Shown piece after piece: positions 1 through 53,449 of a stretch of 64,000 nt of DNA. The stretch's first letter is position 1; each line of letters opens with the position of its first letter. Source of the DNA: an uncultured Planctomycetales bacterium. Its GTDB lineage: Bacteria; Omnitrophota; Gorgyraeia; Gygaellales; Profunditerraquicolaceae. The position numbers and the translations under genes are program-made. A model generated the notes under the pieces. It was not told the DNA's origin. It saw nothing but the letters and a program-made list of their open reading frames with translations, and searched no databases. The stretch spans positions 12,946 through 76,945 of the forward strand of contig CAZIUK010000003.1 in the NCBI GenBank assembly GCA_964542785.1. Reading direction: 5' to 3'.

Positions 1-6
1 ATTAGT

Positions 7-3000
7 ATGCGTTCTTTAGAAGATTTTAAGCTTAAAAAGAACCCACACGGGCAATACCGAGTAGATGATTTTTATTCTGTTTTAAAATATCTTAAATCTG
101 AATATCCCGAAGATATTTTATTTCTCTTTACCTCAACCGATTTAACTTCAAAATTTTATAGCCTAGTCCCTTATTACATCTTTGGCCGGGCGTGGATAGA
201 AGATAAAGTAATAGTTACCTCTATTTATCAATTCCATTCTTTTTCTGCTGAATTATTCAAAGAGCGTATTTATAAGCAGATTCTTCATGAATTAGGTCAT
301 ATATTAGGGCTTGATGATTGTCTTGATTCTAATTGTGCTATGCGTTTTTCTAGAAATATTATGGAATTGGATGAGAGAAAAAAAGAGTTTTGTAGCGGAT
401 GCAGGGGTTTTCTTAAGGTAGAATTAAGCAATTTCCGTGAGAATGACGGCGCTTATACCGCTAATAGTATTTATCTAATAGGGTCAGAAAAAGGCTTACA
501 GGGTGTTAGTTATTTTAGCCTTTATCTTTCGGGATCTGAGGATAAAGAAGGGTTTTTTGGCAATCTTACTAAGCAAGTGGTAGCTTACCATGGGTATAAA
601 GAGGTTGTAGAGTATGAATGTAGCCTGCAAGTTCATCAAAAAGCATTGCACGATATTTATGCAAAAGAGGTTAATTTTAAGACAGGATTAAGAAGGGATT
701 TAGAAACTTTAAAGAGACCTAGATTACCTAAAGAAACTAAAATAGAAAATGTATATCCTTTTAGGCTTTACAGCAAAGAGAGGATTGTAAGTAAGGCAGA
801 TATAGAAAACATAGAGTATTTAAAAGAAAGTCTAAAACGAAATATATACTACGTTAATGCTCCGTCGTTAAGAAAAGATCAGATTATTTTTAGGGTTAAG
901 GACCTTGTTAAAATAGTTTCGTTTATTAAAGCAGAAATAAACAAGCGTCTTCCCAAATTACAGATAATAAATATTTCTGTTTATGGGTCATATCTTTTTA
1001 GCGATGAGGAAGTTGTCCCAAGCGATATAGATATAATTGTTATTGTTGGCGGGAATTACTTTAGTACCGGCATTGAGATCCCGATTAGCCGTTTATGGAT
1101 ACCTTCTTTTGGCAATCTACGTTTGGCTAAGCAGTTTTCTATTTATGTTATGGGCGACGAAAATCTTAAGGACGGCATTTTGGATGAGACTGCAATTTTT
1201 AGCCCGCAGGAAAAAGTTAGATGGCTTGCAACGCAGAAGAGAGTTGTTGAGAATACCTCTTTTGTTTTATACAGAAGGAATGTTGTTTTAGACGGTTGTG
1301 ATTTTATAGCAAACGAAGAGATTTACCGCAGAAATATCTTAGCGCGTGTTTACGACCTTCTTTATAATGCCTACCGTAGGATGTATCTTCATCAACTTAA
1401 GACTAATGAAAAAGAGTTTGAAAGGTTTAAAATTGCTACTACTCGCTTATTAGACGCAGCATTATTTTTAAAAGACCATAAGCCTGTTAGTTTTGATTGC
1501 GAGGAGATATTTAACTTAAGAAAGAGGTTTGAAGAGACCTACGTGATAGACCGTAAGATGGCAAAGTTGGAAGTTCAAAGGGCATGGGTTCAATTATCAG
1601 AGGAATACTCTAGATTTTTAGGAGTTTCTAATTACCGCGATAATGGAGGCAGTTATAAAAATACAAAGCAGGGGTATAGTTGCCCTTTTTTTACAGTAGA
1701 TAGACATCAGGAGGCGTATACCCTAATTCAAGAGTATGTAAAGATAATTGATAAGCTACCTGTACTTATTAACTTTGATGCTCGTTTTGATATAGGGCAA
1801 ACAATTCCGCTTTTAATTGCAGGCCGTAATTGGATATCTTTCCTATTGGATAGTAAGCTAATCCGGAGTTGTTATTTTATTTCAAACAGGCCTAAGTATA
1901 GTAGCTTTATTTTGCATTATGACAATAAAGGAATGATTTTAAAGAGCAATAGTCTAAATTCTTTAGATTGCGCTGAAGAGAATGCTATTGTCAGCATTGA
2001 CTTAGACTATATTATTTCGAAAGATATTCCGGAAGAGATAGACGAAAGTAGGATAGCTTTAGTGGTTAATAGTATATTTAGAATTTTGCGGGAGAATAAT
2101 ATAAAGCCTTCTATGGTTATTGTATTGCGTTCTTCGGACTCCATTCTATCCGCTTTAGAGTGGAGAGCAAGGGCGAGGATTGAATCTTGTTTTCTAGAAT
2201 TTTTTGTGGAGATTAGAAGGAATACCGAATTAGAAAACGAGGCACAAGCTAGGCAGAAGGTTTTAAATAAGGCTACCCTTAAGAAGATAAAAGAGGAGGA
2301 TAATGCTAAGATAAGTATAGTCCTTGGTAATAAGTTAAGGACTTTTACTCTTTATAGATGGGTTAGGATATTTGATAGCATCCTTTTTTCTCTTGATAAA
2401 GAGAGTTCTTCCTTAAAGGGAATGGTTAAAGATATAGAAAGTTTCCGGTTTAGCAATAATTGCTTATCTAAAATACAGGGTTTTATGAATTTGGTAAAAG
2501 ACTCAAGGTTAGAGGAGAAAAAAGAGTCTTTCAGGAGGCTCCTTGTTGCTAAAGAGTTTATAGGGTTAGGAAGGGTTAATTTGGCGGTAGAATCAATGCA
2601 GGCGGTAGCTTTGTTAATAAGGTCGCGTATTGCTGATATTGAGTCTATGAGAGAGAGATTGTTTAAAGTTAGAAAAGAGCTTTTAACATTATCTAAAAAT
2701 AGATTGGAGAGGGTTCAAGGAGCTATTAGAGAAGTAACGGCAGGTTATTGCTATTCTAAAGATAGTAGTTATCTTAAGCAGTCTTTATTTCGGCTATTTA
2801 GATGGCCTTTTTTAGGGGAGCCGGATTTTATAGGGGTACGTAATCAGATTAAGCGCTTAGGAATAATCGTAAATAATCTGCAAAAGAATAAAGCTAGAGG
2901 GCTTCTTTTTGAAAGATTAAAGTTGATAGAGTCTATTTTATCTGAGGCGTTATTAGAGAATGAGTTTACAACAGATTATAGAAATAAGGTTAAATCTTTT

Positions 3001-3423
3001 AGCGGGAGGTTAGAAGAGTTTGATGTTTTATTTAAGGAGTGGGCCGTAAAAAATAGCCTTATTCGAGGCTCTCCGAGGTATTGGAGGGCGCGCCTCTTTA
3101 AGGCTCTCTTTATCTCGGAGAAATCCCCTTGTTTTGCTGCCTGCGATACTATGCTCTTAGTCATCAAGGTTACGAATTTTAGGTTGATTATTCATAGTTT
3201 AATTAAAAATAACCGCTCTAATCTTTTAGGGTTTATTCTTGGTTTTTTAAAATCAAACCCAGATATGCATTGCGCAAAAGATATTACCGGTAAAAATAGG
3301 AATCAATTCCTTATGGAGCTTATAGCAAATGCCTCTTCTGATTTTAATTTATTAGAAAAAGCCAAGGCAGAAGATATAGTAAACCTTTATAAGGCGTTTT
3401 TAATCAAGTTTCCTGGAAAATAG
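7..3423 (+). CDS. Large multidomain protein. It has an N-terminal archaemetzincin-like (M54-type) zinc-metalloprotease signature, a Pol-beta-type nucleotidyltransferase motif and a ~750-aa helical C-terminal region. The 5' end may lie upstream of the window.
   Basis: The ORF is 1138 aa, and its frame stays open back to nt 1 (ATT AGT ATG), so the true start may be upstream. HELGHILGLDDC-LDSNC-AM...EFCSGC matches the HExxHxxGxxxC / Cx4C / Met / CxxC archaemetzincin pattern. YGSYLFSDEEVVPSDIDIIVIVGG matches the GS-x(9-13)-DxD minimal NTase motif. No signal peptide is evident. Confidence 0.6.
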   Translation: MRSLEDFKLKKNPHGQYRVDDFYSVLKYLKSEYPEDILFLFTSTDLTSKFYSLVPYYIFGRAWIEDKVIVTSIYQFHSFSAELFKERIYKQILHELGHILGLDDCLDSNCAMRFSRNIMELDERKKEFCSGCRGFLKVELSNFRENDGAYTANSIYLIGSEKGLQGVSYFSLYLSGSEDKEGFFGNLTKQVVAYHGYKEVVEYECSLQVHQKALHDIYAKEVNFKTGLRRDLETLKRPRLPKETKIENVYPFRLYSKERIVSKADIENIEYLKESLKRNIYYVNAPSLRKDQIIFRVKDLVKIVSFIKAEINKRLPKLQIINISVYGSYLFSDEEVVPSDIDIIVIVGGNYFSTGIEIPISRLWIPSFGNLRLAKQFSIYVMGDENLKDGILDETAIFSPQEKVRWLATQKRVVENTSFVLYRRNVVLDGCDFIANEEIYRRNILARVYDLLYNAYRRMYLHQLKTNEKEFERFKIATTRLLDAALFLKDHKPVSFDCEEIFNLRKRFEETYVIDRKMAKLEVQRAWVQLSEEYSRFLGVSNYRDNGGSYKNTKQGYSCPFFTVDRHQEAYTLIQEYVKIIDKLPVLINFDARFDIGQTIPLLIAGRNWISFLLDSKLIRSCYFISNRPKYSSFILHYDNKGMILKSNSLNSLDCAEENAIVSIDLDYIISKDIPEEIDESRIALVVNSIFRILRENNIKPSMVIVLRSSDSILSALEWRARARIESCFLEFFVEIRRNTELENEAQARQKVLNKATLKKIKEEDNAKISIVLGNKLRTFTLYRWVRIFDSILFSLDKESSSLKGMVKDIESFRFSNNCLSKIQGFMNLVKDSRLEEKKESFRRLLVAKEFIGLGRVNLAVESMQAVALLIRSRIADIESMRERLFKVRKELLTLSKNRLERVQGAIREVTAGYCYSKDSSYLKQSLFRLFRWPFLGEPDFIGVRNQIKRLGIIVNNLQKNKARGLLFERLKLIESILSEALLENEFTTDYRNKVKSFSGRLEEFDVLFKEWAVKNSLIRGSPRYWRARLFKALFISEKSPCFAACDTMLLVIKVTNFRLIIHSLIKNNRSNLLGFILGFLKSNPDMHCAKDITGKNRNQFLMELIANASSDFNLLEKAKAEDIVNLYKAFLIKFPGK

Positions 3424-3588
3424 GGGGGTCTTTTTTGTAAGGGGGAAGGATTTGCAAGAAATTAAGAAGGGTTTTGTTTTTTATTTTAGAAGAGTAGTTG
3501 TTTGTTTCTGTTATATTGTATCGGAGTTTATGATATAATAATTTAGAGTTTAAGCAGGAAAAGCTACAGAGAGAAAGGATGTTAGAGT

Positions 3589-3945
3589 ATGGATGAGCGT
3601 AGAGCTTACCCTAGGATGAGAGTGGATAAAAATGCGGCTTGTACGATTGAAAACCGCTTTACTCCGCTTGCCTGTAATGTTGATGATATAAGTTTAAGTG
3701 GAGTAAGGATTACGATGTCAAAGAATCTTTTCCCGGAGGCTTTTTCTAATATAACCCTGGATATTCCGGAAACTTTATCTTTTAATGTCGGAACGCATGT
3801 CGCCTGGCATGATGAATACGAAGGAAAAAACACATATGGCCTTGCCTTCAATAGGTTAGATGATGGGGATAGAGATAAAATAGCCATTTTTATAAAAGAT
3901 AATTTGTTTAAGACTTTAAGTAAAGAATGGTGGAGGGGCTTATAA
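3589..3945 (+). CDS. PilZ-domain protein (c-di-GMP receptor), single domain
   Basis: The N-terminus carries an RxxxR motif (RRAYPRMR) followed by DISLSGV, which fits the D/NxSxxG PilZ signature. The ORF is 118 aa. Confidence 0.65.
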   Translation: MDERRAYPRMRVDKNAACTIENRFTPLACNVDDISLSGVRITMSKNLFPEAFSNITLDIPETLSFNVGTHVAWHDEYEGKNTYGLAFNRLDDGDRDKIAIFIKDNLFKTLSKEWWRGL

Positions 3946-3946
3946 T

Positions 3947-4633
3947 ATGTATGAACGCAGGAAGATATCCAGATGGCGCATTGATAAGCCGGCGAGGATT
4001 AAGTTTGAAGGATCCGTTTCTTTTATTGATTGCTTGGTCAAAGATATTAATTTTAAAGGCATGCAGATTGTAATGCCTTTAAGATTTAAGGCAGATACTT
4101 ATATAAAATTTAAGTTAAAATTGTCAGATCTTTTTTCTATAGAGAGTGAGGCATGGATAGCTTGGCATAAAAATAGCGATAGGCATAACATTTACGGCTT
4201 TTTATTTACAAGACTTACTGATGCAGATAAAGAAGTTATTTATAAATTTGTTTATCAGAGTGTCCCTGAAGCAATTTCGCATAATTTGTGGAAGGATGCT
4301 TTAAGGGAAGGAGGTGAAGATATGAATGACCGTAGGGTTTTCCAGAGGTTTAATATTCGTTTTTCTGTTAGGTTGTTTGATTTAAATAGCGGATATGAGT
4401 TTACCGGAGAGACAAGCGATATAAGCGCTAAAGGTCTAGGGGTATGGTTAAAAGACGATATACCTCCTAATACTCCTTTGGAGGCTTGGCTGAAGATCCC
4501 CGATAAAGGTGAACCTTTATACACAAGGGGGAGCGTGGCCTGGTCAAAGCCTGACCTTCAGGGTGAACACCGTTTAGGCATAAGCCTTGAACGGGCTGAC
4601 CTTATGGGTTTATCTAGGATATTGAGGATTTAG
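3947..4633 (+). CDS. Tandem (double) PilZ-domain protein
   Basis: Two RxxxR plus DxS/AxxG pairs are present: ERRKISRWR with DINFKGM, and DRRVFQRFNIRF with DISAKGLGV. The gene starts 2 bp after the previous PilZ gene. Confidence 0.6.
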   Translation: MYERRKISRWRIDKPARIKFEGSVSFIDCLVKDINFKGMQIVMPLRFKADTYIKFKLKLSDLFSIESEAWIAWHKNSDRHNIYGFLFTRLTDADKEVIYKFVYQSVPEAISHNLWKDALREGGEDMNDRRVFQRFNIRFSVRLFDLNSGYEFTGETSDISAKGLGVWLKDDIPPNTPLEAWLKIPDKGEPLYTRGSVAWSKPDLQGEHRLGISLERADLMGLSRILRI

Positions 4634-4670
4634 AAAAATATTTTAAAAATTTTAATCAGATTATAAAAAT

Positions 4671-5981
4671 ATGATAAGATCTAAGTTTTGCCTCTTTATT
4701 TTTGGTACTTTTTTTGCGTTTGCGATAGTATTATCAGGCTGTCTGCAAAAAAACAGGATAGATAAACCTACCCTTACTCTCTGGCATTGGATGACTGACC
4801 GAGAAACTCCCTTTAAAGAGTTAGCTAAAAAGTATGAAGCTAAGACAGGGATAAAGATAAACCTTGAGCTTTATGCGCCCTCAGAGGCTTATGCGCAAAA
4901 GGTGCGTGTTGCAGCACAAGGAGCAAACCTGCCTGATATCTTTGCCATCTTAGGGGAAAAGAGGGATCTTGCATCTTTTATTAAAGCCGGGCTTATCCTC
5001 GATCTTACCTCTTATATGCAAGAAGATTCCTTTAGGTGGGAGGGGCTTTTTTATCCTAAGGCGATAGCTGTAAATAGTTTTAGCAAGGATGACAGCTATG
5101 GAGTTAGTCCAGGGATTTATGGCGTGCCGATAGATATAATGACTATTCAAATGCTTTATAATAAGTCTTTATTTAAGAGCCTGGGGTTAAATCCGAATAA
5201 CCCCCCGAAAGATTTTACAGAAATTTTAAATATAGCAAAGAAGATTAAGGAAGAAGGTTTGCAAGGGTTTGTTTCCGGCTTTAGCGAGGTATGGTTGGTT
5301 TATTGCTTTGCCGAAAACTATGCCTTTAATATTATGGGTCCGGAAAAGATGTTAGCTACCATAAAAGGAGAGGTTCCTTATACTGATTCAGACTGGGTTA
5401 GAGTTTTAGAATTATTTAAGGATATGCAGGAATCCGGACTGTTGGCTAAGGGGATAGTTACTATGGTTAATAAGACCGCTGAACAGCTTTTTGCTAATGA
5501 GAAGGCGGTATTTGCTTTTAATGGCTCTTGGTCTGTAAATGTCTATAAAGCGATGAACCCAAAATTAAATTACGATGTTTTTTTTCCTCCTCGGGCAAGC
5601 TATAATTATCCTATGGTTATAAGGGGAGGGGCTGGTTCTTCATTTGTGGTTAATGCACGTTCGCCTAATAAAAAAGAGGCGGTAAATTTTTTACGTTGGC
5701 TTACTGAAGATGAGCAGCAGGTATATCTATCTGAAGCAACTAATAATCTTCCAGCGAATAAAAAGGCAACAGGTTCCCTAAGTGGAGTTTTAGCCGGTTT
5801 TGCCAAGGGTATAGATAGCGCCATACATCCTAATCTTTGGGAAGAAAGGGAATCGTCGTCGGTAATTGATGCTTTTGGCAGGGGGGTGCAGTCAATTATT
5901 ATAGGCAAGAAGACTCCTGAAGAGGCGGCTTTAGAGATCCAGAAGATAAAAGAGAAGGAGTTAATTAGAAAGCGCAAATAA
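4671..5981 (+). CDS. Sugar ABC transporter substrate-binding lipoprotein (family 1 SBP)
   Basis: It has a signal peptide with a lipobox (FAIVLSGC). At 436 aa its length and composition fit extracellular solute-binding proteins. Two permease genes follow. Confidence 0.75.
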   Translation: MIRSKFCLFIFGTFFAFAIVLSGCLQKNRIDKPTLTLWHWMTDRETPFKELAKKYEAKTGIKINLELYAPSEAYAQKVRVAAQGANLPDIFAILGEKRDLASFIKAGLILDLTSYMQEDSFRWEGLFYPKAIAVNSFSKDDSYGVSPGIYGVPIDIMTIQMLYNKSLFKSLGLNPNNPPKDFTEILNIAKKIKEEGLQGFVSGFSEVWLVYCFAENYAFNIMGPEKMLATIKGEVPYTDSDWVRVLELFKDMQESGLLAKGIVTMVNKTAEQLFANEKAVFAFNGSWSVNVYKAMNPKLNYDVFFPPRASYNYPMVIRGGAGSSFVVNARSPNKKEAVNFLRWLTEDEQQVYLSEATNNLPANKKATGSLSGVLAGFAKGIDSAIHPNLWEERESSSVIDAFGRGVQSIIIGKKTPEEAALEIQKIKEKELIRKRK

Positions 5982-19403: not shown

Positions 19404-22400
19404 ATGAAGCCAAAATTATCCGAAAATGCATTGAAAGTTTTAGAAAGAAGGTATTTGAAAAAAGATGAAGAGGGGAAAGTTGTAGAAACCCCGCAAGAGC
19501 TTTTTAGAAGAGTGGCCTCTGCAATTGCTTCGGCAGATAGGTTATACGGAAAAACAGAAAAAGAGATTAAGGTGTTAGAGGAAGAGTTTTACAATATGAT
19601 GGCTTCTTTGGAGTTTCTCCCTAATTCCCCTTGCCTTATGAACGCCGGTAAGGATTTAGGGCAACTATCTGCTTGTTTTGTCCTTCCGATAGAAGATTCC
19701 ATGGACTCTATATTTGAGAGTCTTAAAGCAACTGCTATGATCCATAAGTGCCTTGTCCCAGAAACTATTGTTATGGTTGATAGCGGTTTAAAGGAATTAA
19801 AAGATGTTTCTCCCGGAGAGAGGATACTTACCGAAGAGGGGTATTATAAGGTAAGCGAAATACATAAAAATGGAACCAAAGATATTTTTGAAGTAGTTAC
19901 TGAAAAAGGATATGCAATTAGAGGCACTGCTAAGCACCGCCTATTTATTATTGATGAAAATGGCAATTATGCATGGAAAAAGATAAAAGATTTAAGCCCG
20001 GATGATTGGGTGGTTTTAAAGCCCGCTAAGTGGCATGGTAGAGAAGTAGTAAAGCTTTCTAATTTTAAGTATGATTATCATCCGGTTAATAACGGGTCTT
20101 TTAACTTAAAGAGGGTAAAGATTCCAAGCTTCCTCTCTGTGCAATTGGCAGAATTATGGGGGATGTATATAGGCGATGGCTCTAACCATCGCGACGGAAT
20201 CAGGTTTAGCGTTGGAGAAGAGAGCCGGGAGCTTGTTGATTACATCTCTAAAATCTCCTTAGAACTATTTAACAAAAAACCAAGTGTGAGTAGATATGAA
20301 AAGAAGAGTTGTTATGAGGTAGCTCTTCTTAGCGTTGAACTTAAAGAATGGTTTGCGTCTTTAGGCATAACCAAAGCCTCAGCGCGTAGCGCAAGGATCC
20401 CTAAGATTCTTAAAAACGCGGGAGAAGATTATATATGTGGTTTTTTAAGAGGGCTTTTTTCTACGGATGGCTGTATAAGGAAGAGCGGGCATATTGCTTT
20501 AAGTACTACATCAAGCGCTTTGGCAGAAGAATTACAGGTCATTATGCTTTATTTAGGGATACCTACGCAAAAAACATACCGTCCGGATACAGATAGTTAT
20601 CAAGTCTCAGTTTGTAATAAGTCAGGATTTGCTATTTTTAGGGATAAGATAGGATTTTTAATCCGCGCTAAGCAAGAAAGGTTAAGTTCCGTTAATATTG
20701 AGGAGATTTTTACTAAAGGGCAGATAATCCCGAACCAGAAGAATCGTTTAAGTTCTTGGTATAATAGCTTGGAAGATATCTTAGAAAGAAGAAGGGCGGC
20801 AGATTTTATAGAAGGAATAATCCATAGGCCATCCGGCTTTCGCCAGTTAACCCGGCAGAAGGCATTGCTTATGCAAGAAGATGGCTTAGGCCCCGAATTC
20901 CTTAAGCAGTTTTTACAGGATAACTTATTCTATACGAAAATAAGCAGTATAAAACATTGCGGCAAGAGCGTAGTGTATGACTTAACTGTTCCTTATAAAC
21001 ATTCTTATGTGGCGAATGGTTTTGTTAGCCATAATTCTGGTGGAGGGACGGGTTTTTCCTTTTCGCGCCTTCGGTCGAAAAATGCGGTAGTTAAGACTAC
21101 TGGGGGTGTTGCCTCGGGGCCTATATCTTTTATGCGCGTTTATGATGCGGCGACCGAAGCGGTAAAACAAGGCGGGACAAGGCGTGGCGCTAACATGGGC
21201 ATATTAAGGGTAGACCACCCGGATGTCTTAGAGTTTATTACCTGTAAAGATAATAATAAGCAGATTAATAATTTCAATATCTCTATCGCCTTAACCGATG
21301 AATTTATGCGCAAGTTAGAAAAGAATGAGGATTATGATTTGATAGATCCCCATACTCAAAAGGTAGTAGAGAAGGTTAACTCTAAGGAGGTATTTGACTT
21401 AATAGTAAAGCAGGCGCATAAGAACGGAGAGCCTGGGGTGATCTTTATTGACAGGATGAATGAATTTAATCCTACCCCTAAATTAGGCAAGTATGAGTCT
21501 ACTAATCCTTGCGGGGAGCAGGTCTTACTTCCTTATGAGAGTTGTGATTTAGGTTCAATAAACCTTTCTTTGATTTGCAAGCAAAGAGACGGGCTTTATG
21601 AGATTGATTGGAATAGGTTAAAAGAGGTGACGCATTTAGCTGTGTATTTTTTAGATAATCTAATTGACGAGAATAAGTTTCCTCTTTTGCAAATTGAAAA
21701 GGCGACAAAAGCGACCCGCAAGGTTGGGTTAGGGGTTATGGGTTGGGCTTCTCTGCTTATACGTTTGAATATACCTTATAATAGCGACGAGGCGGTTGCC
21801 TTGGCTGAGAAGGTTATGTCTTTTATTTTAGATGAAGCGGTTAAAAAATCTTTAGAGTTAGGCAAGGCAAAGGGTGCCTTTCCTGCATTTAAAGGAAGTA
21901 TCTATGATAAGAAGAACGCAACGGCTAAGATGCGCAATGCCACTCTTACTACGATAGCTCCGACAGGGACAATTAGTATTATTGCCGGTCCGTGCTCTTC
22001 TGGGATTGAGCCGTTGTTTGCGATATCTTATTACCGTAATGTAATGGACAATGATAAGTTAGTAGAGGTTGATCCTTTATTTGAAGAGGTGGCGCGTTTG
22101 CGCGGTTTTTATAGCCGTGAATTGATGGAGAAGATTGCTAAGAGCGGTTCCCTTGCGCATATTGAAGAGGTGCCTGAGGATGTAAAAAAGATTTTTGTTA
22201 CTGCCCACGATATATCTCCTGAATGGCATGTGCGTATGCAGGCGGCATTTCAGAGGTTTGTACATAATGCTACTTCAAAGACAATAAACTTTCCAGAGGA
22301 GGCTTCTATCGAAGATGTCCGTGAGGCCTATCTTTTAGCTTATGATTTAGGGTGTAAGGGGATAACTGTTTATCGCGATAAGAGCCGAGAGGAACAGGTC

Positions 22401-23003
22401 TTAAATATTGGTAGCTCTAAAGAAGACAAGAGCATAAAGACAGATACCTTTAAGCAGGATTTTAAGAAAGAGATTGCGCCTAGGCCTCGACCGGAGGTAA
22501 TTTTTGGCACAACGACAAAGGTCCCAACCGGCTGCGGGAATCTTTACGTTACTATAAATGTTGACGAAAAAGGAGAGCCATTTGAATTGTTTACTCAAAT
22601 GGGTAAAGCCGGGGGGTGCGCTGCTTCCCAACTTGAAGCCATAGGCAGATTAGTCTCTTTAGGTTTTCGTACAGGAGTAGAGGTCAAATCTATTATTGAA
22701 CAGCTTAGGAATATCCGCTGTCCGTCTCCTTCTTGGGAGAAAGGGCAACGTATATTTTCTTGTGCTGATGCTATTGCCAGAGTAATAGAGAGAAGGTTGG
22801 TAAATACGCAAACCTCAAAAGAAGGGCTTGAAGTAGCTCCAATAGCGATGAAGCACTCTTCTGATGATGAGCAAGTAGTAACTGAGATTAATAATAGCAC
22901 TAGCCGCGGGGATATTGTTGGAGTATGCCCTGATTGCGGGGGAGCTCTTCGCCATGAAGAAGGGTGTATGAAGTGTTATGCCTGCGGGTTTTCTAAGTGT
23001 TGA
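19404..23003 (+). CDS. nrdJ: Class II (adenosylcobalamin-type) ribonucleotide reductase NrdJ, interrupted by an in-frame intein
   Basis: The N-extein ends ...LKATAMIHK and the C-extein begins SGGGTGFSFSRLR..., and the C-terminal region contains a zinc ribbon (CPDCGGALRHEEGCMKCYACG). The 1199-aa ORF is 770 aa once the intein is removed. Confidence 0.8.
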   Translation: MKPKLSENALKVLERRYLKKDEEGKVVETPQELFRRVASAIASADRLYGKTEKEIKVLEEEFYNMMASLEFLPNSPCLMNAGKDLGQLSACFVLPIEDSMDSIFESLKATAMIHKCLVPETIVMVDSGLKELKDVSPGERILTEEGYYKVSEIHKNGTKDIFEVVTEKGYAIRGTAKHRLFIIDENGNYAWKKIKDLSPDDWVVLKPAKWHGREVVKLSNFKYDYHPVNNGSFNLKRVKIPSFLSVQLAELWGMYIGDGSNHRDGIRFSVGEESRELVDYISKISLELFNKKPSVSRYEKKSCYEVALLSVELKEWFASLGITKASARSARIPKILKNAGEDYICGFLRGLFSTDGCIRKSGHIALSTTSSALAEELQVIMLYLGIPTQKTYRPDTDSYQVSVCNKSGFAIFRDKIGFLIRAKQERLSSVNIEEIFTKGQIIPNQKNRLSSWYNSLEDILERRRAADFIEGIIHRPSGFRQLTRQKALLMQEDGLGPEFLKQFLQDNLFYTKISSIKHCGKSVVYDLTVPYKHSYVANGFVSHNSGGGTGFSFSRLRSKNAVVKTTGGVASGPISFMRVYDAATEAVKQGGTRRGANMGILRVDHPDVLEFITCKDNNKQINNFNISIALTDEFMRKLEKNEDYDLIDPHTQKVVEKVNSKEVFDLIVKQAHKNGEPGVIFIDRMNEFNPTPKLGKYESTNPCGEQVLLPYESCDLGSINLSLICKQRDGLYEIDWNRLKEVTHLAVYFLDNLIDENKFPLLQIEKATKATRKVGLGVMGWASLLIRLNIPYNSDEAVALAEKVMSFILDEAVKKSLELGKAKGAFPAFKGSIYDKKNATAKMRNATLTTIAPTGTISIIAGPCSSGIEPLFAISYYRNVMDNDKLVEVDPLFEEVARLRGFYSRELMEKIAKSGSLAHIEEVPEDVKKIFVTAHDISPEWHVRMQAAFQRFVHNATSKTINFPEEASIEDVREAYLLAYDLGCKGITVYRDKSREEQVLNIGSSKEDKSIKTDTFKQDFKKEIAPRPRPEVIFGTTTKVPTGCGNLYVTINVDEKGEPFELFTQMGKAGGCAASQLEAIGRLVSLGFRTGVEVKSIIEQLRNIRCPSPSWEKGQRIFSCADAIARVIERRLVNTQTSKEGLEVAPIAMKHSSDDEQVVTEINNSTSRGDIVGVCPDCGGALRHEEGCMKCYACGFSKC
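19749..21035 (+). mobile_element. Intein (429 aa) with a LAGLIDADG homing-endonuclease domain inside nrdJ
   Basis: It begins with Cys (CLVPET...) and ends ...VSHN immediately before the +1 Ser of the extein. LAGLIDADG-type blocks are LAELWGMYIGDGS and LRGLFSTDGCI. Confidence 0.75.
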
Positions 23004-30417: not shown

Positions 30418-31077
30418 ATGGATAAACAGAGCTCTGACGAAAGACTCCTTAAGCTTATAGAAGGTCAATATAATACCACTACCTTAAAAGGACAGCAAAT
30501 CCCATTTCCCAAAGGACAGAAGCCCGCTATAGAGAAAATAGAGAGAAAATTTAACCTCAATAAATTATTATCTCAAATTAAGGAGCTAAAAATTGATTTA
30601 GTTTATATTAACAAAGGATTAATTTTAGCAGCTGTTTTTTTAGTTTTAGTTTTTTTATTTACTATCTTTACTCCTCCTGGGACTTCTCTTTTAAGCCTTG
30701 AGACTTTTAATAACGCTAGCTCTCGGCAGATAGAGCAGCTAATTAATATGGGGCAAAAGCAGGCGAGTTTGCGTAAATCTGCCTCCTTTAAGGATATAAA
30801 AAGGAATATATTTCTTCCTTTTAGCGCTCCTCAGGGTTTATTAAACCTACAGCAAGCTACAGAATTATCGGAAGAGATAAAAGCGTTAAAATTGGTGGGT
30901 ATTATTTGGTCGGCTGATCCTGAGGTTATGATTGAGAATGCAAAAGACACAAGGACTTATATACTTAAAAAAGGAGATACTTTTAATGAATCTTATAAGG
31001 TAAAAAATATAACACGCAATTCAGTAACCTTGCAGGTATCTACCCAAGATGGCCTAAAGGATTATGAGCTAAGATGA
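30418..31077 (+). CDS. Bitopic inner-membrane protein with a GspB/GspC-HR/PilP-like C-terminal domain (putative secretin-interacting partner of GspA)
   Basis: It has a single TM segment (GLILAAVFLVLVFLFTIF). The C-terminus LKLVGIIWSADPEVMIENAKDTRTYILKKGDTFNESYKVKNITRNSVTLQ resembles the HR/PilP fold. It sits directly between the GspA-like gene and the secretins. Confidence 0.45.
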   Translation: MDKQSSDERLLKLIEGQYNTTTLKGQQIPFPKGQKPAIEKIERKFNLNKLLSQIKELKIDLVYINKGLILAAVFLVLVFLFTIFTPPGTSLLSLETFNNASSRQIEQLINMGQKQASLRKSASFKDIKRNIFLPFSAPQGLLNLQQATELSEEIKALKLVGIIWSADPEVMIENAKDTRTYILKKGDTFNESYKVKNITRNSVTLQVSTQDGLKDYELR

Positions 31078-32609
31078 GGATTTTATTTTATTTTTTCTTA
31101 TATTTATCTTTATTTTTATTTTATCCCGGGTTAATTTTATCAGGAGAGGAAGGTACGCAGGTAAGCGCAGTTAAGGAGGTTAAGTTAGACGGGGTAAATG
31201 ATGATAGTCAAGAGAGTATTGATAAGATTTCTTTGGATCTGAAAGGGGTTGATATCAATGAGCTTTTTAAGATAATTTCTGCAAAATCCGGAATCACCAT
31301 AGTTACCTCTCCTGAAGTAAGGGGCCGGGTTTCGGTTTTTATTGATAATTTAAGTTTTGATGATGCGTTAGACGTAATCGTGACCTTACAGGATCTTGCT
31401 TACGAGAAGAAGGGGAACGTAGTAAAGGTGATGACTATGGTAGAGTATGAGCGGGCCTATGGGAAAAAATTCGGGGAGAGGAAAGAGACCCGTACTATAC
31501 GGCTTACTTATGCTAAGCCTTCTAATGTCGTCAATGCAATTACCTCCTTAAAGTCTGACCTTGGCAAGATTATTGCCGATGAATCTACCGGGACTATTAT
31601 TATAACCGATACTCCGCAATCTTTAAGTGTCATTTTAGAAGCTATTAAAGAATTAGACCGTCCTTTAGAAACTTTAGTAATTGATATTAATTATGCGCGT
31701 TTTGGGGATATAAAAAATTACCTGAATGAATTAATTACCCCCGGGGTAGGGCAGATTATCTCTGATGATAGAAGCGGTAAAGTGGTGGTTTATGATTTTC
31801 CTCAAAGGTTGGCGCGCATTAAAAACCTTTTGCAGGAATTAGACGAACAGTCCCGTCAGGTGCTTATTACTGGAGAGATTATTGAAGTAGAGATAGGCGA
31901 TAAATTTCAAAGCGGTATTGAGTGGGAAAAAATATTTAAGTCTGTGCATATGGATAATTTGGATTTAGTAGCGAAATTTCCAGTTACCCCGGCTTTGGCT
32001 AATTACGGTAAAATTAGCATAGGAACCTTGACACAGGACCATTATAATATAATAATTAATATGATTAATGAATATGGAAAGACTAAGATACTTAACCGCC
32101 CTAGGATTGTGGCGGTTAATAAAGAAGAGGCTAGGATTCTTGTCGGGACTCGCGAGGCCTATGTTACCTCTAGCCAAAGCCAAAGCGAAACTTCTGTAGT
32201 TACCGCAGAGAACATCAACTTTGTAGATGTCGGGCTTAAGCTGGTGGTTATTCCTACTATTGGCTCTGACGGTTTTATTACTATGAAAATAAAGCCTGAA
32301 ATCAGCACAGTAAAGGAGTATTTAGATACTGAGGCAGGTGGCCGTGTGCCGATAGTTAAAACTGCTGAATCGGAGACTGTGGTTAAGGTAAAAGACGGAA
32401 ATATGTTAGTTATAGCAGGGTTGATGATAGATAGTGATTTAAAAGAGGCTAAGGGGCTGCCTGATTTGTCTAAGTTGCCTATTTTAGGCCATTTATTTTC
32501 TACGAAGACAAAGGAAAAGACAAAATCAGAAATAGTTATTTTTATAACGCCAACAATTATAAGCGGCACTAGTGATTTTGGGCGCGAGGAGAGAAATGCA
32601 ATCAGGTAA
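31074..32609 (+). CDS. Secretin (GspD/PilQ family) outer-membrane channel protein, copy 1
   Basis: It has a signal peptide, secretin-N-type domains (TIRLTYAKPSNVVNAITSLKSDLGKII...TGTIIITDTPQSL) and a C-terminal secretin domain (YGKTKILNRPRIVAVNKEEARILVG ... VKDGNMLVIAGL ... LPILGHLFS). Confidence 0.8.
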   Translation: MRILFYFFLYLSLFLFYPGLILSGEEGTQVSAVKEVKLDGVNDDSQESIDKISLDLKGVDINELFKIISAKSGITIVTSPEVRGRVSVFIDNLSFDDALDVIVTLQDLAYEKKGNVVKVMTMVEYERAYGKKFGERKETRTIRLTYAKPSNVVNAITSLKSDLGKIIADESTGTIIITDTPQSLSVILEAIKELDRPLETLVIDINYARFGDIKNYLNELITPGVGQIISDDRSGKVVVYDFPQRLARIKNLLQELDEQSRQVLITGEIIEVEIGDKFQSGIEWEKIFKSVHMDNLDLVAKFPVTPALANYGKISIGTLTQDHYNIIINMINEYGKTKILNRPRIVAVNKEEARILVGTREAYVTSSQSQSETSVVTAENINFVDVGLKLVVIPTIGSDGFITMKIKPEISTVKEYLDTEAGGRVPIVKTAESETVVKVKDGNMLVIAGLMIDSDLKEAKGLPDLSKLPILGHLFSTKTKEKTKSEIVIFITPTIISGTSDFGREERNAIR

Positions 32610-32628
32610 TATTATAAATGGTATAAAA

Positions 32629-32665
32629 GGGGACAGCGACTTTTTTATCAAAAAGTCGCTGTCCC
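32629..32665. repeat. REP-like inverted pair (hairpin): GGGGACAGCGAC-ttttttatcaaaaa-GTCGCTGTCCC
   Basis: I read it directly from the sequence. It lies in the 20-bp gap between the secretin-1 stop and the likely secretin-2 start. Confidence 0.8.
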
Positions 32666-32670
32666 TATTT

Positions 32671-34611
32671 ATGAAATGGGGTATCTGCCTATTTTTATTA
32701 TTTTTGCTGATAGCGCCTTTAGGGGCTTTTATTTTTGCGCAAGGCGATATTGATTATGATGAACAGATAGATAAGATTTCTTTAGATTTAAAGAATGTTG
32801 AAATTGTAGAGCTTCTGCGCATACTTTCTCTTAAGACAAAAAAGACAATTGTCCCCAGCAAAGATATCTCAGGGCGCGTTACTATTTACCTTAATAACGT
32901 CTCTTTTAATGACGTTTTAGATATAGTCCTTTTAACTCAAGGCCTGGCTTTAAACAAAAAAGATAATATTTATTATGTTATGAGCGAAGCTGAATTTAAA
33001 AAAATTTTCGGCCGGGATTACATTGACAATAGAAAGGTAGAGACGGTAAAGCTTGCTTATGCTAAGCCCTCGGTAGTTTTTAATGCCTTAGGCCAGTTAA
33101 AATCAGATCTGGGGAAATTAGTCGTAGATGAATCAAGCGGGACGGTTATTCTTATAGATATTCCCGAAAAACTTTCTCTGATGAAAAAGATGATAAATGA
33201 AATGGACCAGCCATTGACAACCAAGGTCTACAACCTTAACTACATTAAAGCTGCTGATGCTAAAACTCAAATAACTGCCGCTATTACGCAAGGCACAGGA
33301 GAGGTTATAGTAGATGAAAGAAGCAGTAAAGCTATTGTTTCAGATTTATCTAAGAAAATGGATAAGATAGGTATGCTTGTACGCGAGATAGACGAAGAAT
33401 CGCGCCAGGTTTATGTGGAGGCTGATATTGTAGAGCTTAGTTTAAGCGATAAGTTTGAGCGCGGCATAGATTGGGAGAAGGTTTATACCTCTGCGGCTAT
33501 GGATGGATTAACCTTTGCCGGTTATTTCCCTGCTACATTAGCGCAGTTTCAAAAAATATCCGTTGGCACTTTAGCCGTGGATCACTACAAGGCCATATTA
33601 AATTTTCTTAACACTTACGGCAAGACGAATATCATCTCTCAGCCTAGGATAGCAGTTGTTAATAATGAAGAGGCAAATATTATGATTGGCGTGCGTGAGG
33701 CTTATATAACACAGACGCAGAGTCAGGCTACTTCCACTACGGTTACTTCGGAAACGGTAGAGTTTATTGATGTTGGCGTTAAGCTTAAAATATCCCCAAG
33801 GATAGGCTCTGATGGTTTTATCACTATGAAACTTAAACCTGAGGTAAGCTCTGTAAAGGAGACAGTAGAGACTTCTTTAGGCAGCCGTATTCCGATAGTC
33901 CAGACTTCTGAGTCAGAGACGACGGTAAAGGTTAAGGATGGGACGATGATTATGATTGCCGGGATGACTAAGATTGAAAATGTAGATGCGATTAAGGGTT
34001 GGCCAGTGCTTTCTAAAATTCCCTTTCTTGATATATTCTTTGGCAATCGTACCAGCGAGAAAAAGAGAACAGAGGTTATAGTCTTTTTGACTCCGAGAAT
34101 AATGCGCAGTGATGAAGGCTTAAGAGGATTAGAGATTGCTAAGATTCTCCCTAAGGAATATCTGCCTGAGAAGCTGCAGGTTAAGATAGACAGGGACCAG
34201 AAGATAGATGACGCTTTGTTTGAGACTGAGGAGAATCCGCAGGAATTACTTACGGCGCGCGATTATTATTTTAAGGGGTTAGAGTCGCAGGCATCTTTGG
34301 ATAATAAAGAGGCCATACGTTATTTTAAGAAGGCTATAGAGTTAGATAGTAAATATGCCGCGGCTTATAACAATTTAGGAATTGCTTATGAGAAGGAGTT
34401 TATGCCGGAAAAAGCAGAAGAGGCGTATCTTCAGGTTATATCTATGGACCCTTCTTTTGTCTCTGCTTATTCTAATTTAGCCTTACTTAATGAAGACCGG
34501 CTTGATTATGCCCGGGCGCTTATTTATTGGAGAAAACGAGTCCTTTACGGAGACCCTAATGATGAGTGGACTAAACAGGCTGTTCAAAGGGTTAAGGAGC
34601 TTAGCCGTTAA
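32671..34611 (+). CDS. Secretin (GspD/PilQ family), copy 2, with a C-terminal TPR-repeat extension
   Basis: It is paralogous to copy 1 (KISLDLKNVEIVELLRIL..., YGKTNIISQPRIAVVNNEEANIMIG, VKDGTMIMIAGM). C-terminal TPR repeats include AIRYFKKAIELDSKYAAAYNNLGIAYEK. The track start 32572 would translate the REP hairpin, so the more likely start is ATG 32671, which gives the signal peptide MKWGICLFLLFLLIAPLGAFIFAQG. Confidence 0.75.
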   Translation: MKWGICLFLLFLLIAPLGAFIFAQGDIDYDEQIDKISLDLKNVEIVELLRILSLKTKKTIVPSKDISGRVTIYLNNVSFNDVLDIVLLTQGLALNKKDNIYYVMSEAEFKKIFGRDYIDNRKVETVKLAYAKPSVVFNALGQLKSDLGKLVVDESSGTVILIDIPEKLSLMKKMINEMDQPLTTKVYNLNYIKAADAKTQITAAITQGTGEVIVDERSSKAIVSDLSKKMDKIGMLVREIDEESRQVYVEADIVELSLSDKFERGIDWEKVYTSAAMDGLTFAGYFPATLAQFQKISVGTLAVDHYKAILNFLNTYGKTNIISQPRIAVVNNEEANIMIGVREAYITQTQSQATSTTVTSETVEFIDVGVKLKISPRIGSDGFITMKLKPEVSSVKETVETSLGSRIPIVQTSESETTVKVKDGTMIMIAGMTKIENVDAIKGWPVLSKIPFLDIFFGNRTSEKKRTEVIVFLTPRIMRSDEGLRGLEIAKILPKEYLPEKLQVKIDRDQKIDDALFETEENPQELLTARDYYFKGLESQASLDNKEAIRYFKKAIELDSKYAAAYNNLGIAYEKEFMPEKAEEAYLQVISMDPSFVSAYSNLALLNEDRLDYARALIYWRKRVLYGDPNDEWTKQAVQRVKELSR

Positions 34612-36656: not shown

Positions 36657-36669
36657 GGGGGACAGCGAC
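36657..36669 (+). repeat. REP-like single copy GGGGACAGCGACT
   Basis: It is an exact copy of the 12-mer core. Confidence 0.7.
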
Positions 36670-36787
36670 TATTTATAAGAGTAATATTTATAATAAAATA
36701 GAGTAGTTTTACGATTGTTATTTTAGGATAAATATAATATACTTAAGGTACAGGTTAAAAATAAAAAATGGCAGGTATAATGAAAAT

Positions 36788-36817
36788 AATAAACAATAAC
36801 AATAACAATAACAACAA
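36788..36817 (+). repeat. Hexanucleotide microsatellite (AATAAC/AACAAT) with about 4.5 units
   Basis: The sequence is aataaacaataacaataacaataacaacaa. It would encode poly-Asn if the track start 36768 were real, but it is more likely noncoding 5' leader. Confidence 0.55.
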
Positions 36818-36818
36818 A

Positions 36819-36872
36819 GGGGACAGCGACTATTACTATTTTTGCGCTATGATAAAAAAAGTCGCTGTCCCC
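36819..36872. repeat. REP-like inverted pair with a 30-nt spacer (GGGGACAGCGAC ... GTCGCTGTCCCC)
   Basis: The spacer contains the likely ATG (36849) of the downstream gene. The second arm AAAAAAGTCGCTGTCCCC is translated as KKVAVP within the signal peptide. Confidence 0.8.
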
Positions 36873-44022: not shown

Positions 44023-47000
44023 ATGAAGAAAATACTCAAGGTATTATTAATAGGCGGGTTAGCGCTCTGGGGTTATTTTGAATCCGCATCCTTGGCTTTA
44101 GGAGCTAATCTTTCTATCTCAAGCGCGTCTGATCAGACCTTTATCTCTGAGGAAGCGCCTAAGGATGCGCAGGCTATAACCATTACTGATGTATCTGGAT
44201 CCGGCATAATCGTTTCAAGCGGGTTGAGGATACTTATCCCGGATTCTTTCGGGATGCAGTGGCATGGGGCTATGCTTAGGGATGATAGCGTGACTGATAC
44301 CTCTAACGCTGATTTTAGTGTTATTGCCGCGCAGATAATCTCTGCCGGGGTAACCTTGGAAAGTTCAGATGCCGGAGCAACCGGGAGCGTGGAGGTTAAT
44401 TTTACCAGTATAAACTCTATACCTGCTGATGCAAAGATAGTGATTACATTCCCGGATAATTTTGTTTTTAATTCTAAAAGCCCAACTCTTGCTTCTTCTG
44501 CCACAATGAGCGGGGATTTTAGTGTTAGTATTACTGGGCAGGTTATAACAGTTACCCGCAACTCAACTTCGGCTTCTTCTGCTGGAAGCCACTTAATTAC
44601 CTTAACTAATATTAAGAATCCGATTAGGCCGGGAACAACTGGGGCATATTCATTGAAGATCCAGACTCTGGCGGGGTTTGATATTGATGTGAATAATGAT
44701 TTAGCCGCTTCCACGATTGTCCCTGCGGCAACTTCCCGTATAACTTTAAATTCTCCGGATGATATGACTGCAGGCGCAGCGCGCGCAGCCTACACCTTAA
44801 CCCGTTATGATGAGTACGGTAATTTAAGTACACAAGAGGAAGAAGTCTTTGACATTTCAACTACCTCTACCGGGGATAATGCTGTTTTCTACAATGATGC
44901 TACTGCAAGCGAAGCCGGGAATATCATTACCAGTATCACTATCCCCCAGGGTTCTTCTTCGGTTAACTTCTGGTATGACGATACCAAGATGGGGGCGTAT
45001 ACAATTGCGGCTATTAAATCAGATCAGCCTGAGATTACCGTTTCTGATGGTATAAATGTAAAGCATGCTGAACCGGATCATTTAAGGTTTGTTTCTGATA
45101 TACCTACTGCGGATGCCAAGCAGGTCTCTGTGCAGTTTAACCTGCCTCAGCTTGCTGCTGTTGACCGTTATGATAATATACTTACTAATGACTACGGAGC
45201 TGCTGCTTATTCCGGGAATAAGGCTATAACCTATTCCTTAAGCGGTCAAAGAGACGCTCCCGACGGAAATGGGACAGATCTTTTTTATTCCGACAATGTA
45301 GCTTCGGCGAAGGTAAATTTTACTAACGGCCTCTCAACAAATGCCCTTAGCGCTAAGTTATACCGGGCGCAGAATACGGTTATATCCCCGGCGGATAGTA
45401 ATCTTCCCAGCGAGAGTCTTCCTTCTAACGAGATTATTGTTAACCCGGCTACAGCGACAAAACTGGTCTTTAAACAGCAGCCTTCTGGCAGTGCGATAGT
45501 CAACTCTGCCTTTTTACAACAGCCGGTAGTAGCTATCCAGGATCATTACGGCAACCAGACTTTGGATATATTCCCGATAAAGCTCTATGATTCTATCCGT
45601 TCGGAATTTCCTTATGCCGATGCTCCTGGAATTTTAACTTCTGACCACGAGGATAATACATTAAATGCCGTTGCAGGCGAGGCGTCTTTTAGCGGGGTTG
45701 AATATAATGCCTCAGGTGTAATATACCTGTATGCCCAAGGATTAGGCGCAGGCAGCAATGTTAACCCTGTTTTTTCAAATGAGATAACCCTGGCTACTTC
45801 CGTCACAACCATGGTTAAGGCCGCGGATACTCCTGTAGCTGACTTTAACCTAACTCCTACCAACGATACATTGGAAAAGAAGTTTAAGGTTTTAAAGTTT
45901 AAGGTAACTGATGCCGGAGAAGATAAGACTCCTACATTGATCGATCAGATTAAAATAGCAGTATCCGGCACCGGGGGTCATGCTTCTACAGATATTGCCT
46001 GGGCAGGTTTATATGTAGGAGAAGAAAAGGTGGCGGATGCTGCTTCTATAACAGATGACTTTATTACTTTTGGGCAGGAGCCTAACAGCGATTCTACTGC
46101 AGGTATCTACAGCGTGCCTGATAGTAGCTCTGTTGAATTTACCGTGTATATCCATATGAAGCCGGATAAGTTATCCGCCCTTGACGGCCAGTCGTATATC
46201 TTTACTACTGATGAAGATAGGGTAGGGGTTGACAGAGGGGCTTCTTCGCAAATGACGGCAAGCTCAGGCAGTATAGCCGCTGTTACCGGAACTATTAAAG
46301 TTGATATGACGCATCTTGAGATTGTAACTGAAGAAGGAGCCTCAACATTAACTGTCTCTGCTGGGGTGCCGGTAGAGCTGTTGGTGCGCGCTACCGACGC
46401 TAATAAGAACATAGATAGCGATTATAATGGTAGCCATACCTTAGTCTTCTCAGGGTTAAATAGTGTTGGTACCCTTTACCCAAAGATAGAGAGTGTCCTT
46501 TTTGGCTATAATATAACTATTTCTTTTTCAGGAGGTATTTCTGCTTCTCAAGGAGTTACCCTTACTCCTTATAAGAGCGAGGAAGGTATAATCGTTGTCC
46601 AGGAATCAGGAAAGTCTTACAGTCAGCATGGATTAACTGCCACGATTGTCCCTGCGGCGACTTCCCGTATAACTTTAAATTCTCCGGATGATATGACTGC
46701 AGGCGCAGCGCGCGCAGCCTACACCTTAACCCGTTATGATGAGTACGGTAATTTAAGTACACAAGAGGAAGAAGTCTTTGACATTTCAACTACCTCTACC
46801 GGGGATAATGCTGTTTTCTACAATGATGCTACTGCAAGCGAAGCCGGGAATATCATTACCAGTATCACTATCCCCCAGGGTTCTTCTTCGGTTAACTTCT
46901 GGTATGACGATACCAAGATGGGGGCGTATACAATTGCGGCTATTAAATCAGATCAGCCTGAGATTACCGTTTCTGATGGTATAAATGTAAAGCATGCTGA

Positions 47001-53390: not shown

Positions 53391-53449
53391 GGGGACAGCG
53401 ACTTTTTTGATAAAAAGTCGCTGTCCCCCTAGAAAAAGTCGCTGTCCCC
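53391..53449. repeat. REP-like triplet: GGGGACAGCGAC-tttttgataaaaa-GTCGCTGTCCCC-ctagaaaaa-GTCGCTGTCCCC
   Basis: It starts 20 bp after the giant-gene stop. The first pair forms a hairpin and probably acts as a terminator or mRNA stabiliser. Confidence 0.8.

Follow-up and report, generated by a model that had tools for sequence, protein, structure and literature searches.

A multi-module gene tail with an embedded archaemetzincin-like module and conserved peptides at module borders in an Omnitrophota bacterium

A large open reading frame at the edge of the window

We analyzed a 64,000-nucleotide stretch of DNA (the window) from an uncultured bacterium of the Omnitrophota (contig CAZIUK010000003.1, positions 12,946 to 76,945 of the forward strand, assembly GCA_964542785.1), focusing on the large open reading frame (ORF) that enters it at its left edge. 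From position 7 to 3423 on the + strand this frame is translated without an internal stop into 1138 amino acids (aa), and residues are numbered according to that translation. Bases 1 to 6 (ATT AGT, with ATG next) are in frame and also lack a stop, and the gene therefore runs past the window edge. The window thus holds its 3'-terminal 1140 codons followed by a TAG stop (3421-3423). An original prediction, made from the sequence alone, had described the ORF as a cytoplasmic fusion of about 1140 aa joining an archaemetzincin-like metalloprotease signature to a nucleotidyltransferase (NTase) motif, with a helical region of some 750 aa behind them. The frame, its open upstream end, and all of the quoted motif strings are present where that prediction placed them, but the protein is considerably longer than it supposed.

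The sole identical database protein (P0001) is encoded on a contig from an independent JGI assembly, L002, whose bases 1649-5558 match window positions 1-3910 at 3909 of 3910 bases. Bases 2-1648 of L002 prolong the same frame by 549 codons upstream, still without a start, which brings the known polypeptide to at least 1689 aa; everything upstream of the window is known from L002 only. Upstream extension, proposed as a check in the original prediction, reveals a PGM/PMM module comprising PGM_PMM domains I, II, and III (Pfam E=6e-14 to 4e-21; E=2e-40 against PMM/PGM structures in the PDB) and, after it, the missing N-terminal part of the M54 peptidase module, which is thereby complete. The modules run in the order PGM/PMM, M54, an 80-aa spacer with the NTase-like module, and module B with a helical module C. 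PGM/PMM, M54, and NTase-like domains, which are unrelated enzyme domains, therefore share one ORF. Its features are listed below.

1..3423, + strand: multi-module gene tail, 3'-terminal 1140 codons plus TAG; frame open at base 1
In L002, between PGM and M54: junction copy 1, ERYRDNGGSYADA
1..432, + strand: C-terminal two thirds of the M54 module (Pfam PF07998, PDB 2x7m), which starts upstream of the window
286..402, + strand: zinc/cysteine signature, comprising HELGHILGLDDC, C105-x4-C110, Met112, and C129-xx-C132
433..456 (aa 143-150), + strand: junction copy 2, FRENDGAY, after M54; SNFRENDGAYTAN
457..702 (aa 151-232), + strand: spacer X, with no homologue
703..1632 (aa 233-542), + strand: module A, NTase-like, with two domains (alpha/beta Pol-beta-type core and helical bundle)
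703-705, + strand (L002 2351-2353): codon 233, GAA in the window and TAA in L002
982..1047, + strand: NTase motif YGSY-x9-SDIDIIVIV, with G327-S328 and D340-I-D342
1633..1656 (aa 543-550), + strand: junction copy 3, YRDNGGSY, after the NTase module; SNYRDNGGSYKNT
1657..2220 (aa 551-738), + strand: module B, with no function assigned; relatives P0038 and P0070
2221..3420 (aa 739-1138), + strand: module C, conserved and all-alpha, about 400 aa

Judged by sequence comparison, the M54 assignment is solid, and profile searches support the M54 fold that had been predicted. The whole module spans about 239 aa and is bounded by two junction motifs. Pfam PF07998 (Peptidase_M54) matches aa 14-135 with E=5.2e-21 and 76 bits (cut-off 24.4), and the match enters the 194-position profile at position 65. 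The solved archaemetzincins 2x7m, 4axq, and 3zvs are matched at E=8e-16 to 2e-14 (8e-16 for 2x7m), and the complete module as read from L002 aligns to residues 70-190 of the 195 in 2x7m. The published family consensus combines HEXXHXXGXXH-C with four cysteines (CX4C ... CXXC) and a CXM Met-turn (PMC3427221). The module contains HEXXHXXG (H94-E95-L-G-H98-I-L-G101), with the catalytic Glu and the first two His ligands, within HELGHILGLDDC at aa 94-105 (nucleotides 286-321), followed by CLDSNC (aa 105-110), CAM (aa 110-112), and CSGC (aa 129-132). C105, C110, M112, C129, and C132 are spaced as in 2x7m, and the four cysteines and the Met-turn are kept.

The signature departs at one position from the "full" archaemetzincin pattern of the original prediction, as its third zinc ligand is Asp104 (HELGHILGLDD) in alignment with a His in both 2x7m and 4axq. 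The closest relative, P0002, shares this Asp. Asp as the third zinc ligand also occurs in snapalysin-type metzincins, so the module may still have peptidase activity. Characterized archaemetzincins (AmzA of Methanopyrus and Archaeoglobus, AMZ-tk, and human AMZ1/AMZ2) have in common with it the HExxHxxG, CX4C, CXM, and CXXC elements at 2x7m spacing. Their third ligand, in contrast, is His, and they are stand-alone proteins of 160-210 aa, whereas the M54 module here lies inside a chain of at least 1689 aa with a junction peptide on each side.

L002 carries the same M54-spacer-NTase-B-C arrangement as the window, and since it is an independent assembly, a chimeric join, which had been named as a possible refutation of the original prediction, is ruled out. 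The physical linkage of protease and NTase therefore stands. Their treatment as a specific pair does not, as the two are adjacent cassettes and the M54 module of P0002 has other neighbors. Six more short assemblies match the window at 100% identity, every one beginning inside the large ORF, and every assembly found has a contig break inside the gene. Samples with this population include JGI 3300076591, 3300076261, and 3300076298, and SRR29782965, SRR29782968, and SRR12447094. Upstream extension was also sought in genome contigs, where only the 3961-bp contig of P0002 was found, and a scan of metagenome contigs returned one unrelated PGM and no continuation. Lookups of two PilZ proteins encoded downstream of the ORF returned only short contigs, all starting within it. 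The source contig of the window is 101,391 bp long. Across the 1689 known residues, no 19-residue stretch exceeds 1.6 on the Kyte-Doolittle scale; since the N-terminus lies beyond this known part, the cytoplasmic location of the original prediction is at most a possibility.

Conserved peptides and shuffled cassettes

A conserved peptide, [FY]-R-[DE]-N-[GD]-G-x-[YF], stands between units of the polypeptide. The somewhat broader pattern [FYV]R[DENR]N[GD]G.[YF] has three copies in the 1689 aa, where composition alone would predict 1.2e-4, and a six-frame scan of the 64-kb window found no others. Each copy sits close to a module end: copy 1 lies about 20 aa past the end of the PGM fold, copy 2 lies 10 residues past the last M54 Cys (4-5 residues past the point where the 195-aa archaemetzincin 2x7m ends), and copy 3 coincides with the C-termini of stand-alone relatives of module A. 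An embedded protease and conserved peptides at module borders are thus both present in the known part of the protein.

The same combination was found in P0002, a 1320-aa fragment that fills a whole contig of a Candidatus Omnitrophota metagenome-assembled genome and is the only named close relative; by this one relative, an Omnitrophota origin of the gene is probable. Its M54 module with the downstream motif is 69% identical to that of the window, while the flanking modules on both sides are unrelated. P0002 contains three junction copies against 0.006 expected, placed right after M54, 200 aa further on, and after a glutamate-dehydrogenase-like unit. All six copies from the two proteins show synonymous codon differences, and selection therefore acts on the peptide rather than on the DNA; a DNA-level recombination site or an RNA signal was ruled out on these grounds. 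Gly-Gly is present in five of the six copies, and the remaining one reads N-D-G. A scan of viral contigs for DNA encoding YRDNGGSY gave a single match, which is chance level.

Searching with aa 146-1138 in HMMER gave three non-overlapping sets of matches, one each for modules A, B, and C. These modules occur alone or in different fusions, including in proteins of 4,500-7,800 aa, and because the host proteins pair them with unrelated sets of enzymes, the sequences indicate that the modules are shuffled cassettes. In P0003 the order is SF1 helicase, module C, GNAT, module A, and sugar transferase, with C ahead of A, and the domains of P0004 are M50 peptidase, PAS, URO-D, ferredoxin, and RACo. 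In P0009 a module-A tail (57% identical) is followed by HRDNGGS and then by hydrophobic segments in place of module B.

Other recurrent peptides were identified in several of these proteins. The pattern [AGS]SSP[VLI] occurs 14 times in P0020 (7778 aa; 0.08 expected), seven times in P0070 (5866 aa; 0.06 expected), and twice in P0010, while [LM]DNGG occurs six times in P0017, a 1499-aa fragment, against 0.002 expected. Their positions again coincide with module borders. Module C of P0020 (aa 41-450) is flanked by [AGS]SSP[VLI] copies at aa 19 and 456, the HATPase_c domain of the same protein (1227-1340) ends just ahead of a copy at 1351, and module B of P0070 ends at a copy at 4921.

The NTase-like module, its companions, and the wider window

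Module A carries YGSY at aa 326-329 and SDIDIIVIV at aa 339-347, and the Pol-beta pattern hG[GS]-x9-13-Dh[DE]h is thereby present as Y-G327-S328-x11-D340-I-D342-I. Pfam matches to the single sequence are sub-threshold (Polbeta PF18765, E=0.016, 15.8 bits, cut-off 26.9; NTP_transf_2 PF01909, E=0.044, 14.6 bits, cut-off 21), and we accept the NTase fold on the basis of a family profile and a confident model instead. With a 30-sequence family profile, E-values of 2.3e-5 and 0.014 were obtained for a solved structure labelled "nucleotidyltransferase domain-containing protein" (9xbd) and for the MNT antitoxin, respectively. The AlphaFold model of the module, built with 63 sequences, has a pLDDT of 85.8 and a pTM of 0.85 and consists of an alpha/beta core followed by a helical bundle. 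When this model was compared to the PDB with Foldseek, nearly all of the top 25 or so matches were Pol-beta-type NTases or NTase-fold proteins, including 3c18, HalB, ANT(4')-IIb, AAD(9), AadA, and cGAS, though the matches are weak (best E=5e-3, TM 0.23-0.37, identity at most 13%). The Pol-beta-type NTase of the original prediction is therefore supported as a predicted fold, whereas membership of a named family is not supported. Two-domain Pol-beta NTases (ANT(4')/KNTase, AadA/ANT(3'')(9), AAD(9), 3c18, and HalB) share with module A a GS-x11-DxD core, a helical bundle, and a length of about 300 aa. Module A differs from them in its identity of 13% or less, in its lack of Pfam membership, and in the APH-like kinase partner of its stand-alone forms.

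The exhaustive HMMER search with aa 146-1138 returned 77 relatives, most of which match only aa ~233-542; many are stand-alone proteins of 270-310 aa. A search with the family profile gave 91 members, mostly of about 277 aa, along with some fusions of about 577 aa to methyltransferase domains. Module A thus defines an unnamed family made up mostly of ~277-aa stand-alone proteins. Both Asp residues of DxD are invariant in the 30-sequence alignment, where GS is almost fully conserved; the 63-sequence set has GS and DxD invariant together with several more Gly, Asn, and Arg positions. Glu385 (nucleotides 1159-1161), a candidate for the third catalytic carboxylate, aligns to the family's conserved Asp in GxDNL, just past the strand at model residues 145-151. 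The four named relatives come from three DPANN archaea and one bacterium of the candidate phyla radiation (Nanoarchaeota, Pacearchaeota, and Falkowbacteria).

At two loci, a stand-alone module-A gene overlaps an upstream gene of 405-439 aa with weak Pfam matches to APH/choline-kinase-like families, and these upstream partners are homologous to each other (E=1e-55).

L004, 3685-5864: stand-alone module A with kinase-like partner
L007, 3794-5828: stand-alone module A with kinase-like partner

Genes surrounding stand-alone module A encode methyltransferase/HAD, sugar-phosphate-isomerase-like, dCMP-deaminase, PHP, and glycosyltransferase proteins, and P0019 fuses a kinase, module A, and a cytidine/dCMP deaminase into one protein. 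This context suggests a part in small-molecule or nucleotide metabolism and not in immunity. Given the conserved kinase partner of its stand-alone relatives and the neighboring modules here, the likeliest role of the NTase-like unit is nucleotidylation of a small molecule or phosphorylated metabolite, as opposed to a function in immunity.

The remainder of the polypeptide does not form the single helical region that had been proposed, as that stretch resolves into the helical half of the NTase module, module B of about 190 aa, and the all-alpha module C. Spacer X had no phmmer match among all of the proteins fetched and none in Pfam. Module B has relatives in P0038 and within the 5866-aa P0070 and no match in Pfam or the PDB. 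Its relatives read INFDAHSDMG and VDLDYLISN; in the window copy the first string is INFDARFDIG, in which the His is missing (window 1768-1797 and 1993-2022). These strings recall arginase/UPF0489-type metal-binding motifs, a tentative lead that finds no support in Pfam or the PDB. The ankyrin protein P0065 is probably a spurious match. Module C contains the conserved blocks LYRW.RILD, WPFL.EPDF, and RYWRARLYK..FISE.S.CF and recurs within proteins of 2,204-7,778 aa. Its model is all-alpha (pLDDT 88, pTM 0.78) and finds no meaningful match among PDB folds (best E=0.058, TM 0.15).

All long ORFs of the window are on the + strand, and it has the appearance of an ordinary chromosomal region. Directly downstream of the large ORF lie two consecutive PilZ genes (3589-4633, +), one of 118 aa and one of 228 aa in which PilZ is matched twice, followed by a sugar ABC transporter; MFS transporter and glycosidase-like genes are also present. 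A ribonucleotide reductase large subunit (19404-23003, +) contains an in-frame intein (Pfam Intein_splicing and LAGLIDADG_3, aa 149-544), and the window further holds MnmG, a histidine kinase, and a PilB-type ATPase. Two adjacent secretins, the second with C-terminal TPR repeats, occur along with a PilB/T2SSE ATPase, DUF2341, and FGE-sulfatase-like genes (31074-34611 and 61602-63227); these suggest a surface apparatus resembling a type IV pilus or type II secretion system.

A 3115-aa ORF (44023-53370, +) is Ser/Thr/Ala-rich, has a signal-peptide-like N-terminus, and contains no junction motif. Neither this ORF nor the adjacent 961-aa ORF (41037-43922) has a Pfam match at 1e-5. The guanine plus cytosine (GC) content of the 3115-aa ORF is 0.44-0.45, compared to ~0.39 elsewhere, with low GC skew. 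A 14-nucleotide element, AAAGTCGCTGTCCC, occurs in 14 copies (at most two mismatches) against 0.3 expected. Most copies form intergenic inverted pairs about 8 nucleotides apart, and the element looks like a repetitive extragenic palindrome (REP)-like or hairpin element. Rfam and tRNA scans of the window gave no matches.

32630-32665: AAAGTCGCTGTCCC copies
36659-36871: AAAGTCGCTGTCCC copies
38523: AAAGTCGCTGTCCC copy
53392-53448: AAAGTCGCTGTCCC copies
55077: AAAGTCGCTGTCCC copy
55697: AAAGTCGCTGTCCC copy
59282-59337: AAAGTCGCTGTCCC copies

A possible polyprotein and its alternatives

Giant multi-enzyme proteins of Omnitrophota have been described in a preprint (West-Roberts et al. 2023) and in a 2026 "complete-genome view" preprint, the latter placing "multi-enzyme metabolic clusters" in its class 1 and listing PGM/PMM among the commonest domains. 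Embedded C39 or S8 peptidases have been proposed to process such proteins, and in the 2023 preprint the absence of any known cleavage points is acknowledged as a limitation. M54 and recurrent junction peptides are mentioned in neither preprint, and our literature search found no paper that pairs "Omnitrophota" with "polyprotein". As in those proteins, unrelated enzyme domains tile one polypeptide here, and modules A, B, and C also occur in proteins of 2.2-7.8 thousand aa; the giant proteins of the two preprints, however, measure at least 10 thousand aa, compared to the known minimum of 1689 aa here. The best reading of the gene is that it belongs to this recently described kind, polyprotein-like and multi-enzyme.

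Self-processing modular proteins are familiar elsewhere, as in MARTX toxins, with their internal cysteine protease domain, and in viral polyproteins (3C/NS3). These have an embedded protease, short conserved sites between modules and at the protease flanks, and shuffled cargo, and by analogy the sequence here would suggest the same. The presumed protease is instead a metzincin, the cargo appears metabolic, no toxin or secretion features were seen, and cleavage would have to be assumed from the likeness.

We hypothesize that the ORF is the tail of a polyprotein-like multi-module gene in which the junction peptides are processing sites and M54 is the cutter, a reading that we prefer tentatively and hold with somewhat less than even confidence. 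The junction peptides would serve as recognition and cleavage sites between units. The embedded M54 module, with one site on each side, would cut at them, and cutting would release the enzymes as separate proteins in fixed proportion. M54 is proposed as the processing enzyme because it is flanked by the sites and conserved together with a site, and because the archaemetzincin AMZ-tk, which degrades casein, is documented to cleave itself in a zinc-dependent manner (PMC4681839). A broader version of this hypothesis, which we consider doubtful though worth stating, is that lineage-specific "junction codes" exist in true bacterial polyproteins and are read by co-evolving embedded proteases, an archaemetzincin in the present case, whose enigmatic family would then have its first defined physiological role. 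Equally doubtful examples of such codes may be [FY]RDNGGx[YF] here, LDNGG in P0017, and SSSP[VLI] in P0020, P0070, and P0010.

Several points weigh against processing by M54. We infer cleavage of the junctions from the peptides themselves, and the association of M54 with the motif is known from two related lineages only. The border of the spacer with module A has no junction motif, and neither does that of module B with module C. With Asp as the third zinc ligand, peptidase activity is a prediction, and the NCBIfam archaemetzincin ("archmetzin") subfamily model scores 79 bits, below its cut-off of 145. P0003-P0008 and P0015 have module A or C in common with the ORF, yet no M54 and, in a crude reduced-alphabet search, no recurrent motif was found in them; the border-motif pattern is therefore not universal. 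P0017 has DNGG motifs, yet no M54 in its 1499-aa fragment, and a C39-type double-glycine cysteine peptidase could equally be the cutting enzyme. The known length of at least 1689 aa also falls short of demonstrating a giant protein.

A credible competitor, though one we rate below the M54 hypothesis, is an uncleaved multi-enzyme scaffold in which the junction is a hinge, turn, or docking element and M54 acts elsewhere or is a structural zinc/cysteine domain. The 2026 preprint views these proteins as "multi-enzyme metabolic clusters" that carry scaffolding repeats, some module borders lack a motif, as do several related giant proteins, and helical module C, without an enzyme-like fold match, is itself scaffold-like. 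Moreover, Asn-Gly-Gly favors tight turns, and the His-to-Asp change could mean that protease activity has been lost. An 8-residue motif with an invariant Arg, Asn, and Gly plus an aromatic residue nevertheless exceeds the specificity that a hinge would require, the lineage-specific variants fit co-evolution with a recognizing enzyme, and the M54 module keeps its catalytic Glu, both His, Met-turn, and four Cys at 69% identity between lineages. It is also conceivable, but unlikely, that the junctions are processing sites cut by another protease, such as a C39-type peptidase encoded elsewhere or in a more upstream part of this gene, or spontaneously at Asn-Gly, with M54 as cargo. C39 peptidases cut after Gly-Gly, which fits the motif end in five of six copies. 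Such peptidases and S8 are reported as common in Omnitrophota giant proteins, where they were proposed as processors, and P0017 carries its motifs in a fragment lacking M54. Set against this, neither a C39 nor an S8 domain was seen in the 1689 known aa, P0002 and P0017 likewise show none, and the N-D-G copy lacks the double glycine.

Two further explanations would take the ORF apart or assign it to another system. The sole difference between L002 and the window, a G-to-T change at window nucleotide 703, gives L002 a TAA stop in place of GAA (Glu) at codon 233, which separates the M54 part from the NTase module. The original caution about a break near aa 250-300 is thus partly borne out, though not as an assembly chimera, and no third assembly among those found spans nucleotide 703. 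If TAA were the true state and the window ORF a variant or error, the locus would hold two genes or a decaying gene. We judge this very unlikely, as no ATG, GTG, or TTG follows in frame before codons 373 (TTG) and 382 (ATG), which are both beyond the GS...DxD catalytic motif, so the NTase part cannot be a separate gene. Homology to stand-alone module-A proteins begins at codon ~233-250 without a start or ribosome-binding context, and the frame stays open and conserved for 905 more codons. The stop is most simply explained by a nonsense mutation of recent origin, or by an error, in L002. The remaining alternative is the one implied by the original prediction, a dedicated protease-NTase fusion acting as an effector or sensor in defense or signaling, and we regard it as highly improbable. 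The Hailong NTase HalB is among the top Foldseek matches (E=0.011), with CD-NTases lower down, and the downstream PilZ genes encode cyclic di-GMP receptors. PADLOC, however, returned no significant match, its hits (E=0.003-0.02; best PDC-S09, E=0.003 over 45 residues) falling on the generic GS..DxD stretch; the HalB match is likewise limited to the NTase core, and aminoglycoside NTases score equally. M54 and NTase are not a conserved pair, with P0002 having M54 without the NTase module and many module-A proteins lacking M54. The same ORF includes a housekeeping-type PGM/PMM module, and the search for defense or signaling partners nearby found no known defense gene beside it, the neighbors being transport, PilZ, and glycosidase genes.

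Under the M54 hypothesis, the locus supplies candidate cleavage sites that are conserved as peptides, lie at module ends, and vary by lineage, together with a candidate enzyme that is flanked by them. If this is true, the functional units of giant proteins could be delimited by computation, and archaemetzincins would have a physiological role. More generally, polyprotein processing, which is typically viral, would be operating in cellular metabolism.

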